Shown: in pieces, positions 839 through 2,921 of the stretch | How the letters are laid out: the number at the start of each line of letters is the position of its first letter | Numbering within the stretch: the first letter of the stretch is position 1 | NCBI GenBank assembly: GCA_041288095.1 | Contig: JBGGMJ010000097.1 | Coordinates: forward strand, 1-20,100 | Source: Myxococcota bacterium | GTDB taxonomy: Bacteria; Myxococcota; XYA12-FULL-58-9; JALHOP01 | Reading direction: 5' to 3' | DNA: 20,100 bases | Program-made: the position numbers and the translations under genes | The notes under the pieces: model-generated | What the model saw: only the letters and a program-made list of their open reading frames with translations | What the model was told of the DNA's origin: nothing | The model's database searches: none

Positions 839-1872
839 GCCGGGTACGCCGCCGCGGACCAGAGGCCGGCGCGCTCGTCGAGTCCGGTCGCCAGATTCAT
901 GTTCTGGATGGCCTGGCCGGCCATGCCCTTCACCAGATTGTCGAGCGCGACCATGATGGCCGTGACCTTGCCCTGGGTCGCGAAGCCGATGTCGACGAAG
1001 TTGCTGCCGACGACACTCGCGAGACGGGGTGACTCCTCGACCAAGCGCACGAACGGTGCCGCGGCGTAGGCCTTCTCGAACTTGGCGCGCACGTCGCCTA
1101 CTCCGGCGAGCTGCACGGTGAGAAAGATGCCGCGCACGATGGGCGCCGAATGCGGCACGAACCCGAGCTCGCCGTCGACTCCGAGCGCCAACATCAGCTG
1201 AATCGCCTCGGCCTGATGCTGGTGGCCGAGGGCTTTGTAGGCGCGAAAGTCATGGGCACGCGTTGGGTGATGCGTGGTCTCGGCGAGCTTCATGCCCGAG
1301 CCCGATGAGCCCGTGACGCCACTCACCGCGATCAGGCCGACCTGGTGTTTGGCGAGCGGCAACAAGGCGAGCTGCAGCGCTGTCGCGAAGCACCCGGGAT
1401 TGGCGATGCGCTTCGCCGCTTTGATGGAGTCGTGCTGCCACTCGCAGAAACCGTAGGTGAAGGCGGGGATCTCGTCGGGGCAGGGATGCTCGACCTTATA
1501 GAAGCGCTTATAGAGGTCGACGTCGTGAATGCGGAAATCCGCCGACAGGTCGATGAGTGTGAGACGCCGCCAGGTCTCGCCGGGCGCGGAGGCGGCGAGT
1601 GTCTTGTACTGCTGAGAGAGCTCGCCGTGCGGCATGGCGCAGAACAACACCGGCTTGTCGCTCTCCGAGAGCCATGCCCAATCGACGTTGGCGTCGAAGG
1701 TGCCCTGAAGCACGCCGCGCAGGTTCGGGTGTACGGCGTGAAACGGCTTGCCGGCATACGAGCGCGACACACCCCGTACCAACGGGCGTTCTGGATGTTG
1801 CGCGAGCAACCGCAGCAGCTCGCCGCCGCCGTACCCGGAGGCGCCGAGCACGACGACGCGGCGCTCGCTCAC
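835..1872 (-). CDS. argC: N-acetyl-gamma-glutamyl-phosphate reductase
   Basis: Rossmann motif GASGYGG, DLSADFR, catalytic NPGCFATA, GSSGSG, HQHQAE and C-terminal DNLVKGMAGQAIQNMN. Lies in an operon with argB and argF'. Confidence 0.95.
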   Translation of the reverse strand: MSERRVVVLGASGYGGGELLRLLAQHPERPLVRGVSRSYAGKPFHAVHPNLRGVLQGTFDANVDWAWLSESDKPVLFCAMPHGELSQQYKTLAASAPGETWRRLTLIDLSADFRIHDVDLYKRFYKVEHPCPDEIPAFTYGFCEWQHDSIKAAKRIANPGCFATALQLALLPLAKHQVGLIAVSGVTGSSGSGMKLAETTHHPTRAHDFRAYKALGHQHQAEAIQLMLALGVDGELGFVPHSAPIVRGIFLTVQLAGVGDVRAKFEKAYAAAPFVRLVEESPRLASVVGSNFVDIGFATQGKVTAIMVALDNLVKGMAGQAIQNMNLATGLDERAGLWSAAAYPA

Positions 1873-2921
1873 TTCAGAGCCCCACGCTCGACGAGCTTGG
1901 CCTTGATGAAGTCACCCAGCGCTTGCGCGTTGGTGCGGGCGTTCAAGGCCGGTAAGCCCAGCTCACGCTGCACGAAGCGCACGCCGACGTTGTTGTCGGT
2001 CGCGGGGCCGGTCACCACGTCGACCTGGAGCCCGTAGCGTTCCTTCATGTCGCGGACCCCACCGGCGCAGCCGACCGGGTCGTTGGCGCACAGCAAGATG
2101 GCGACGGCGCGCTTCATCAGCTCCTTGTCCGCCAAAATGGACTGGACGCCGTAGTCACCCATGATGCCGTCACCGGTCTCGGCGACGATGATCTGAGCGC
2201 CTTCCGCCGCGAGCTCCGAGAAGACGATGCGCGCGGCGCGCTGGCTCGTGGCCGCGTCCGACGAGACCACGCCCGTGTCGGTGAAGTCGTAGGCGATGTC
2301 GGCGCCGTAGTCGCGCATGTTGAGAATGTCTTTTTGCAATGACACGCCGGTGAGCTTGCCGCCGCCGACGCGGTAACCAGCCTGCGAGAGGCTGCGCACG
2401 AGCGTACAAGCCGCCGCCGTCTTACCGGAGTTCATGCAGGTGCCGGCCACGTAGATGACCGGGACCATGGGCGCATCGGCGACACCCTCGAGCGCGTTCA
2501 TGCCGATGTGCGCCGGCTGGCCGACACGCGAGTTGAACTCGGGAAAGACCAACACTTGTCCGAGCACCTCGACGTCGAACGGAGGACCGACGTCGGGGTT
2601 GAACGAGATGCAGTGGCCGATGACGCCGCCCAGGTTCAGGATCTGGAGCTTGTCGCCGACGTTCACCTTGGTCGGGAGCACGCCCTCGTAGCCGTGGAGA
2701 GCGTTGCGGTGTCCGAGCGCTCCGATGACGATGTCGCCGCTCTGCACCGTGCTCATGCGACCGTGACGGTCCTCGAGCGTGTTGTACGCGCCCTTGTGAT
2801 TGAGCACGCGCCCGGCAATGACCGCGCCCGCCCGCACCTCGATGCGGTCGGTGAGGGTCAGCGTCTTTCCGAGGTCGAGGTTGCGAGTAACCGAGGCGAT
2901 CTTGTCGACGGTGATTCTCAC
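1869..2921 (-). CDS. Uncharacterised P-loop NTPase, DUF1611-like family (350 aa)
   Basis: Walker A-like VAGTCMNSGKT, followed by KLTG, DFTDTG and Walker B-like IIVAETGDG. GTG start with AAGGAG upstream. GTGA overlaps with both argB and argC. Family assignment is from recalled motif similarity. Confidence 0.8.
   Translation of the reverse strand: MRITVDKIASVTRNLDLGKTLTLTDRIEVRAGAVIAGRVLNHKGAYNTLEDRHGRMSTVQSGDIVIGALGHRNALHGYEGVLPTKVNVGDKLQILNLGGVIGHCISFNPDVGPPFDVEVLGQVLVFPEFNSRVGQPAHIGMNALEGVADAPMVPVIYVAGTCMNSGKTAAACTLVRSLSQAGYRVGGGKLTGVSLQKDILNMRDYGADIAYDFTDTGVVSSDAATSQRAARIVFSELAAEGAQIIVAETGDGIMGDYGVQSILADKELMKRAVAILLCANDPVGCAGGVRDMKERYGLQVDVVTGPATDNNVGVRFVQRELGLPALNARTNAQALGDFIKAKLVERGALK

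Follow-up and report, generated by a model that had tools for sequence, protein, structure and literature searches.

In a 20,100-nucleotide stretch of DNA from a Myxococcota bacterium (contig JBGGMJ010000097.1 of assembly GCA_041288095.1; 'the window' refers to this whole stretch), a gene that we call X lies between argB and argC in a short arginine operon. We propose that X is probably the N-acylglutamate synthase that supplies ArgB and ArgC, and that the acyl group it attaches is most likely succinyl. The first-pass annotation of the window had suggested that X replaces the first step of arginine biosynthesis, and this suggestion is supported by the conserved arg neighbourhood, the missing ArgA and ArgJ, the non-co-occurrence of X with ArgJ and the SIMIBI-class P-loop fold. 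It had also presented X as a new candidate for this step. Here it was overtaken: the idea is already in print for the family (Price et al., PLoS Genet 2026, PMC13759103, in the parts of that article available), which limits the novelty of the window gene. The operon comprises the following features.

835 to 1872, minus strand: argC (TIGR01850, 316.4 bits against a cut-off of 234).
1869 to 2921, minus strand: X, 350 amino acids in two domains, candidate N-succinyl-L-glutamate synthase.
2918 to 3817, minus strand: argB, N-acylglutamate kinase (TIGR00761, 199.5 bits), with the amino-acid-kinase domain only.
3832 to 4821, minus strand: argF', N-acyl-L-ornithine carbamoyltransferase (NF003384, 395.8 bits).
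4822 to 4941, no strand assigned: presumed promoter region of the operon, between argF' and a divergent open reading frame (ORF), placed there from the ORF layout.

The window is one whole contig of a draft genome that totals 5.85 Mb over 212 contigs and whose completeness is 89.98%. Read along the minus strand, the gene order is argF'-argB-X-argC. As annotated, X is coupled to both of its neighbours by GTGA overlaps, which can be read directly in the sequence: tcac at 2918–2921 joins the argB stop to the X start, and tcac at 1869–1872 joins the X stop to the argC start. X begins with a GTG codon, and its N-terminus coincides with the start of its homologues; the true start of argB is the ATG at 3817, 14 nucleotides (nt) past the argF' stop. 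The operon was described as lying between a convergent orphan gene and a divergent protease gene. The former description holds, since ORF 137–838 has no family match in Pfam or NCBIfam, while the protease label is soft, as ORF 4942–6660 gave only a partial M6-domain match of 23 bits against a cut-off of 110.8. The convergent ORF would encode 233 amino acids, and its stop codon overlaps that of argC at 835–838. None of the 19 window ORFs scanned contains a GNAT, ArgA or ArgJ domain, which agrees with the annotation; matches of the ArgA model to the window ArgB are limited to the kinase part, and this ArgB has no acetyltransferase domain. The argG-, argH-, argD- and M20-like genes of the genome are on other contigs.

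The association of X with arginine genes is strongly conserved. A neighbourhood scan using one genome per species yielded 567 confirmed relatives of X, and the best 80 loci (57–99% identity) were analysed by clustering their ORFs and naming one representative per cluster with NCBIfam; many of these loci are cut by contig ends. They come from Corallococcus, Myxococcus, Hyalangium, Pyxidicoccus, Geothrix, Holophaga foetida and Natronospira, and from metagenome-assembled genomes labelled Chthoniobacterales, Gammaproteobacteria, Lysobacterales and Planctomycetota. The usual arrangement is a nine-gene cluster in the order argR (divergent), argD, argF', argB, an M20 deacylase of the ArgE/DapE type, argH, argG, X and argC. 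The most frequently observed gene was argG (75 loci), followed by argC (74), argB (64), argH (62), argF' (60), the M20 deacylase (50), argR (46) and argD (42). In 74 of the 80 loci argC lies directly downstream of X, and five of the remaining six have less than 340 nt of flank. The sole locus with ample downstream sequence (7967 nt) in which no ORF of the argC cluster comes after X is L080. Directly upstream of X, argG was found in 72 of the 80 loci; argB takes this position only in L001 and L002, the nearest relatives of the window, and the four-gene operon argF'-argB-X-argC with argB before X is confined to this lineage (the window, L001 and L002). Nor do the 80 clusters conceal an additional conserved gene of the GNAT or any other kind: all unannotated ORF clusters found in at least 13 loci are shadow frames inside annotated arg genes. 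By elimination, X would be the first-step enzyme: the cluster covers all steps from N-acylglutamate to arginine, and what is left over is a single gene of unassigned function and a single step, the first.

We also examined whether X-bearing genomes encode a known first-step enzyme. In the window genome, ArgJ (PF01960) and the NAT domain (PF04768) gave no match, the ArgA model (TIGR01890) matched only ArgB itself (positions 5–278), and the ArgE model (TIGR01892) gave 13 M20 matches, none of them above the cut-off. Five isolate genomes that carry X (those of L029, L065, L067, L078 and L050) had no ArgJ (0/5) and no ArgA above the cut-off (0/5); beyond ArgB-type hits and weak hits to stand-alone GNATs, nothing was found in them.

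This pattern was extended to two samples of genomes. The first covered 251 genomes of the window's phylum, with genome handles compared by hand. X matched at E ≤ 1e-5 in 68 genomes, 63 of them with strong matches (E ≤ 3.2e-91) and five with weak ones (E 6e-37 to 7e-6). ArgJ was found in 109 genomes, ArgC in 191 and ArgA above the cut-off in five, all of which were ArgJ-positive and none of which had X. Of the 191 ArgC-positive genomes, 63 had X without ArgJ, 109 had ArgJ without X, none had both and 19 had neither, and the 60 genomes that lack ArgC had neither X nor ArgJ. Within one family of 83 genomes (f17), X was present in 46 and ArgJ in 36, and no genus had both. The second sample consisted of 121 genomes belonging to the same phylum as the Geothrix genome. 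Full-length X (E ≤ 6e-60) was present in 28 of them, weak matches in four and ArgJ in 26, and there was no overlap between full-length X and ArgJ. Since related genomes are not independent, no statistics are attached to these counts; one genome flagged as unpublished (G200) is included in those for ArgJ and ArgC, and two more (G279 and G304) are among the 28 X genomes. The expectations of the first-pass annotation that X would be anticorrelated with argJ, and that X genomes would lack ArgA and ArgJ, are thus borne out by zero genomes with both in two phylum samples (63 versus 109 and 28 versus 26) and by the window genome and the five isolates.

Weak matches behave differently from full-length X. 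Three of the five weak-hit genomes in the first sample (G073, G113 and G197) do have ArgJ, so distant X paralogues are a separate matter; one weak-hit genome in the second sample (G293) has ArgJ as well. The 19 ArgC-positive genomes without strong X or ArgJ (G012, G016, G026, G031, G033, G039, G055, G068, G074, G079, G089, G108, G118, G125, G129, G131, G135, G143 and G147) all lack ArgA above the cut-off, and two of them, G068 and G108, carry a weak X-like gene only.

The identity of the acyl group is suggested by the carbamoyltransferase encoded beside X. The window ArgF' aligns to the N-acetylornithine carbamoyltransferase of Xanthomonas (PDB 3kzc, E 1e-69), and its specificity position, fixed by the PDB chains of Xanthomonas Glu92 mutants, is Thr93. 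Among the 61 ArgF' proteins that adjoin X (60 loci and the window), this position is Ala in 41, Pro in 15, Thr in three, Ser in one, Gln in one and Glu in none. Replacement of Glu92 by Ala, Pro, Ser or Val switches the enzyme to N-succinylornithine (PMC13759103, citing Shi et al. 2007), and Price et al. count Thr and Ile among the succinyl-type residues too (PMC13759103; both statements from the available parts of the article). Judged by this residue pattern, the acyl group is most likely succinyl. All three Thr-type enzymes belong to the window lineage, with one each from L001, L002 and the window itself.

The protein family of X is large, highly conserved and mostly unnamed. Of 8000 candidates scored in a word-indexed search, 6839 were homologues at E ≤ 1e-3, and identity to X is 62–94% in the best 120, which span several phyla. 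This places X far beyond a chance ORF; named sources among these 120 include Acidobacteria/Holophaga, Armatimonadetes, Gammaproteobacteria and Chthoniobacterales, and nearly all entries are called 'hypothetical protein'. A profile search of 1.84 billion representatives found 1757 proteins at E ≤ 1e-3, 268 of them at E ≤ 1e-30. X matched no Pfam or NCBIfam family at E ≤ 1e-3. Relaxing the threshold to E ≤ 10 gave four weak P-loop matches over residues 148–192 (CbiA 0.0058, AAA_26 0.035, MobB 0.049 and DUF1611 0.05), and still no GNAT, ArgJ or NAT catalytic-domain match. Some Myxococcaceae members carry the public names 'DUF1611 domain-containing protein' or 'D-glutamate N-acetyltransferase-li...'. 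ESM Atlas clusters of X have similar automatic names, yet PF07755 is found on only 16–18% of their members.

The structure of X was modelled with AlphaFold2 using 25 homologues, with a mean predicted local distance difference test score (pLDDT) of 88.7. The model has two domains.

2478 to 2921, minus strand: N-terminal all-beta domain, residues 1 to approximately 148 (pLDDT 88.1 when folded alone).
1872 to 2465, minus strand: C-terminal SIMIBI-class alpha/beta P-loop domain, residues approximately 153 to 350 (assigned by VIA-align and Foldseek).

Foldseek comparison of the whole model with the PDB yielded hits to SIMIBI-class proteins, namely SRP/FtsY, CTP synthase and BioD (E 8e-7), and to the DUF1611 entries 2obn (E 3e-6) and 2g0t (E 6e-6). 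VIA-align matches all fell on residues 148–348, the strongest being the DUF1611 structure 2g0t (Z 17.0, root-mean-square deviation 2.9, 172 residues aligned), followed by CTP synthase (7dpt, Z 16.0), a second DUF1611 structure (2obn, Z 15.3), BioD (1a82, Z 15.0) and DgcN (7xrj, Z 14.0, root-mean-square deviation 3.7, 182 residues aligned at 9% identity). SIMIBI chaperones and Fe-S carriers were also among the matches (ApbC 14.6, Cfd1 14.3, HypB 13.8 and UreG 13.3). A SIMIBI P-loop fold close to DUF1611, BioD and CTP synthase, as proposed from the sequence at the outset, is consistent with these comparisons. The N-terminal domain alone matched none of 48,161 chains at Z ≥ 5 with VIA-align (best Z 3.5, to Tudor- or LexA-like beta pieces) and nothing at E ≤ 1e-3 with Foldseek. 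In the model, this domain appears to be without a solved relative among the structures searched, which does not in itself prove a new fold.

The C-terminal fold is common to X and DUF1611 (2g0t, 2obn and 7xrj), and in this respect the label 'DUF1611-like' given by the first-pass annotation stands (Z up to 17.0); as a statement of sequence membership it does not. PF07755 scored 13.4 bits on X against a cut-off of 25 (E 0.05), over 38 residues around the P-loop, which is no better than CbiA, AAA_26 or MobB. Applied at E ≤ 1e-15 to 101 genomes of the window's phylum, PF07755 found true DUF1611 genes in six (E 1e-52 to 1e-73), and in the X-bearing genomes among the 101 it matched no X gene. Three genomes, G070, G095 and G086 (L090–L092), have both a true DUF1611 gene and X at different places, so the two families are not interchangeable. 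Comparison of the X profile with a profile of the six true DUF1611 proteins using hhalign gave a probability of 10.6% (E 0.0029) over 95 columns, running from the P-loop through the Walker-B-like Glu. Within this region, the P-loop of DUF1611 reads GTD-x-A-x-GK[KR]-x-T and that of X GTCMNSGKT, the DUF1611 motif TGQT stands against GKLTG in X, and the six DUF1611 proteins follow GK with Lys or Arg and have no Lys at the position of Lys189 of X. The N-terminal domain of X matches no Pfam N-terminal family, and its structure search returned no DUF1611 entry (best Z 3.5). By its PF07755 score and its P-loop motif, X is not a member of DUF1611. X resembles DgcN and the other DUF1611 structures (PF07755; 7XRJ, 2OBN and 2G0T) in having a SIMIBI P-loop domain at its C-terminus, in which the loop takes the form GT-x4-GK and a strand ends in E-x-G-x-G; DgcN, according to its PDB title and the available parts of PMC13759103, also modifies a glutamate (D-Glu) at its amino group. 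They differ in that X has GKT and an invariant Lys189 where DUF1611 has GK[KR]x-T without that Lys, and apparently also in the N-terminal beta-domain of X, which matches no solved structure. The analogy with DgcN from which the first-pass annotation had argued is thus much weaker than was assumed, with X below the PF07755 cut-off, an hhalign probability of 10.6% and X genes missed by PF07755.

Residue conservation points instead towards ATP chemistry. Across 56 diverse representatives of the family, 27–57% identical to X, the only invariant residues are Arg72, Pro83, Gly166, Lys167, Thr168, Lys189 and Glu248. The positions of interest are as follows.

2706 to 2708, minus strand: Arg72, invariant, in the conserved GALGHRNAL stretch of the N-terminal domain.
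2418 to 2444, minus strand: Walker A loop GTCMNSGKT, residues 160–168, with Gly166, Lys167 and Thr168 invariant in 56 of 56.
2355 to 2357, minus strand: Lys189, invariant, aligned to Lys37 of E. coli dethiobiotin synthetase (BioD).
2178 to 2180, minus strand: Glu248, the invariant acid ending the Walker-B-like strand (VAETGDG).

Among PDB sequences, the family profile matched E. coli BioD alone (E 0.019), with residues 157–189 of X lying on residues 5–37 of BioD. Lys167, Thr168 and Lys189 of X fall on Lys15, Thr16 and Lys37 of BioD, which we take to be the residues that bind ATP/Mg and the phosphorylated carbamate. X shows the SIMIBI amidoligase set, in which a Walker A motif of the form G-x5-GKT is followed by a second Lys beyond strand 2 and by an acid that closes the Walker B strand. 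Unlike DUF1611, X thus appears to keep the residues expected of a Mg-nucleoside triphosphate (NTP)-dependent SIMIBI ligase. BioD and the amidoligase domain of CTP synthase share with X the fold (Z 15.0 and 16.0, respectively), the aligned Lys, Thr and Lys, and an acid ending the next strand, and their formation of a C–N bond from an activated carboxyl-type group suits the reaction needed here. On the other side, the sequence likeness to BioD extends over only about 33 residues (E 0.019), and BioD lacks the N-terminal beta-domain and acts on unrelated substrates; for X the use of ATP is a prediction.

The literature on the family was considered next to these results. In the available parts of their article, Price et al. 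predict the same role for a Steroidobacter member, A0A127FCT3, based on arg-operon context, a weak Foldseek match to DgcN 7XRJ, the ArgF' position-92 pattern and the finding that it never occurs with Pseudomonas-type ArgA (109 genera versus 970) (PMC13759103). Plasmid maps for the Steroidobacter gene in codon-optimised form (pALF12) and for E. coli argA are given in supplementary file 4; the main text contains 'argA' three times (Table 1 and sections 11 and 12), and these three mentions include no result for the clone (PMC13759103, in the parts available). The plasmid map is labelled 'A0A127FTC3' where the text has A0A127FCT3, probably a typing slip. Translated by eye, the pALF12 insert has a VDKI-S-T start followed by GALGHR-AL, GTCM--GKTAAAC, LCANDPV and TGPATDN, in the same order as in X. 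The Steroidobacter protein therefore looks like a diverged member of the X family. This link rests on the by-eye reading of the plasmid map, because no Steroidobacter was named among the top 120 matches of a gammaproteobacterial query or among the best 80 loci. Like X, the Steroidobacter protein is a hypothetical protein of approximately 350 amino acids in an arg operon, in a genome without ArgA, with weak structural likeness to DgcN 7XRJ and a neighbouring ArgF' that lacks Glu92 (PMC13759103, in the parts available). It has NAI where the close family of the window has an invariant NAR, and the window operon differs from the Steroidobacter system in being cut to four genes, with argB instead of argG upstream of X.

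Our literature search found no paper that combines 'DUF1611' with 'arginine biosynthesis', and among the matches listed for 'N-succinylglutamate synthase' only Price et al. concerns the X family. The GNAT protein BT3761 was identified by genetics as the N-succinylglutamate synthase of Bacteroides thetaiotaomicron (PMC8121099, in the parts available). ArgA, ArgJ and BT3761 hold the pathway position proposed for X, and BT3761 lies in the arg operon of a succinyl-type pathway, according to the same portion of that source; their folds are unrelated to that of X, which has no GNAT, ArgJ or NAT domain. The present analysis adds to the published prediction the exclusion of ArgJ in two phyla, the negative result on DUF1611 membership together with the unmatched N-terminal domain, the set of invariant residues suggestive of ATP chemistry and the odd Thr in the ArgF' of the window lineage.

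We slightly favour ATP-dependent ligation of succinate to glutamate over succinyl-CoA (coenzyme A) transfer, because DUF1611 membership fails, GKT, Lys189 and Glu248 are invariant, and the family profile matches BioD. The role and the ATP chemistry taken jointly, that is, an N-succinylglutamate synthase working as an ATP-dependent ligase, can be put forward only tentatively. In such an enzyme, Mg-ATP would bind to the canonical Walker A GKT, together with Glu248; succinate would be activated as an acyl phosphate with the assistance of Lys189, as carbamate is in dethiobiotin synthetase; and L-glutamate, held by the N-terminal beta-domain with its invariant Arg72, would attack through its alpha-amino group to give N-succinyl-L-glutamate, ADP and phosphate. 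The pathway would then proceed via N-succinylornithine and, through ArgF', N-succinylcitrulline to citrulline and arginine. On this tentative proposal, X may found a new enzyme class within the arginine pathway: a ligase that uses ATP to join succinate to L-glutamate, and not an acyl-CoA transferase, in which a BioD-like P-loop domain is combined with a beta-domain of as yet unseen fold. Free succinate released by the desuccinylase would thereby be attached again, so that succinate would cycle at the expense of ATP, in parallel to the acetyl cycle of ArgJ. There is precedent for ATP-dependent protection of the glutamate amino group in arginine synthesis in the ArgX/LysX ligases of the LysW carrier pathway, which differ from X in having an ATP-grasp fold and in using a carrier protein, not a small acid, as the protecting group.

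Several points weigh against these conclusions. To our knowledge, all characterised glutamate N-acylases use acyl-CoA or transacylation, and the P-loop of X could hold the phosphates of CoA. DgcN is the sole characterised enzyme among the top structural matches, and its PDB title says N-acetyltransferase. The window ArgF' has Thr and not Ala, Pro, Ser or Val, which makes the acyl group least certain in the window genome itself. Table 1 of Price et al. lists 'Evidence: no' for this predicted enzyme, and all but one of their novel enzymes are said to have genetic data (PMC13759103, in the parts available). The non-co-occurrence of X and ArgJ may partly reflect the argF'-type pathway, ArgJ being of the ornithine type. 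Finally, given the 89.98% completeness of the window genome, a small stand-alone GNAT could be the synthase.

A succinyl-CoA-dependent transferase is a possible alternative that we hold with a little less conviction than the ligase. X would still be an N-succinyl-L-glutamate synthase, with succinyl-CoA bound in the P-loop domain and glutamate taking over the succinyl group directly on its amino nitrogen, on the model of DgcN, which reportedly uses acetyl-CoA. The gene-context and phyletic evidence serves this alternative equally well, the known N-acylglutamate synthases, BT3761 included, are taken to use acyl-CoA, and DUF1611 structures are the top or near-top matches of the C-terminal domain (2g0t 17.0, 2obn 15.3 and 7xrj 14.0). 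CTP synthase and BioD are within 1–2 Z units of these, however, and X scores below the PF07755 cut-off (13.4 versus 25 bits), aligns to DUF1611 with an hhalign probability of 10.6% and was not detected by PF07755 in the X-bearing genomes searched, three of which yielded true DUF1611 paralogues. X also keeps Mg-NTP residues (GKT, Glu248 and Lys189) that are absent or displaced in DUF1611. Transfer from acyl-CoA is the reading implied by Price et al., so in this form the prediction is in print (PMC13759103, in the parts available).

It is unlikely that X has some other role in the succinyl-type pathway, as a regulator or as a nucleotide-dependent helper or metallochaperone for the M20 desuccinylase (compare HypB, UreG, MeaB and ApbC), the synthase then being a small GNAT elsewhere. 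The chaperones and Fe-S carriers among the fold matches (ApbC 14.6, Cfd1 14.3, HypB 13.8 and UreG 13.3) would fit such a role, as would the weak stand-alone GNAT matches in X-bearing genomes, and a connection with the argF' variant of the pathway would equally account for the non-co-occurrence with ArgJ. Within the close family Cys162 and Cys278 do not vary, but neither is invariant among the 56 representatives of the wider family. X is retained in clusters without an M20 gene (30 of the 80 loci and the window), no conserved GNAT is found in any of the 80 clusters, and a helper role would leave the first step without a gene in hundreds of genomes. It is very improbable that X is a first-step enzyme attaching acetyl or another acid, at least in the window lineage, as might be argued from the Thr confined to the window and its two nearest relatives (3/61) and from the NCBIfam name of the window ArgF' model NF003384, N-acetylornithine carbamoyltransferase, given that none of the 61 ArgF' proteins has Glu, that Thr and Ile are succinyl-type according to the available parts of PMC13759103, and that X of the window lineage is 62–71% identical to X beside Ala/Pro-type ArgF'.

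The first step of arginine synthesis is without an assigned gene in many bacteria, among them Myxococcaceae, Holophagae, other Acidobacteriota, Chthoniobacterales and many soil Gammaproteobacteria, and as the probable synthase the X family would fill this gap in genome-based predictions of amino-acid needs. Were the reaction indeed an ATP-dependent ligation, it would add a new enzyme class to a textbook pathway and extend the dethiobiotin-synthetase-type fold to a new use. Members of the family occur in culturable and partly genetically tractable myxobacteria, which makes the question directly testable.

Distant X paralogues were also observed outside arg clusters (L098:2604-3875, L100:6259-7524 and L101:6243-7472; profile E 1e-27 to 1e-41), with neighbours that include an M14/AstE-AspA-like carboxypeptidase, an M20 peptidase and a YheC/D-type ATP-grasp protein, in one case each. 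This hints at a wider family whose substrates are N-acyl amino acids or small peptides. ArgJ is also present in some of the genomes concerned. Several long proteins (P0196, P0202 and P0332–P0340) contain X joined to other domains, nine to ArgC-type or ArgG-type (argininosuccinate-synthase) domains and one to an amino-acid kinase. They were not used as fusion (Rosetta-stone) evidence, being single metagenome sequences in neighbour-gene order and possibly merged gene calls. Elsewhere in the window, a gliding-type or auxiliary ABC export set occupies positions 8142–12917, where an ABC ATPase gene is accompanied by those of an ABC-2 permease, a GldG-like ABC_transp_aux protein and a DUF4340 protein; this run is abutted by a GH114 glycoside hydrolase gene at 7241–8143 on the minus strand.

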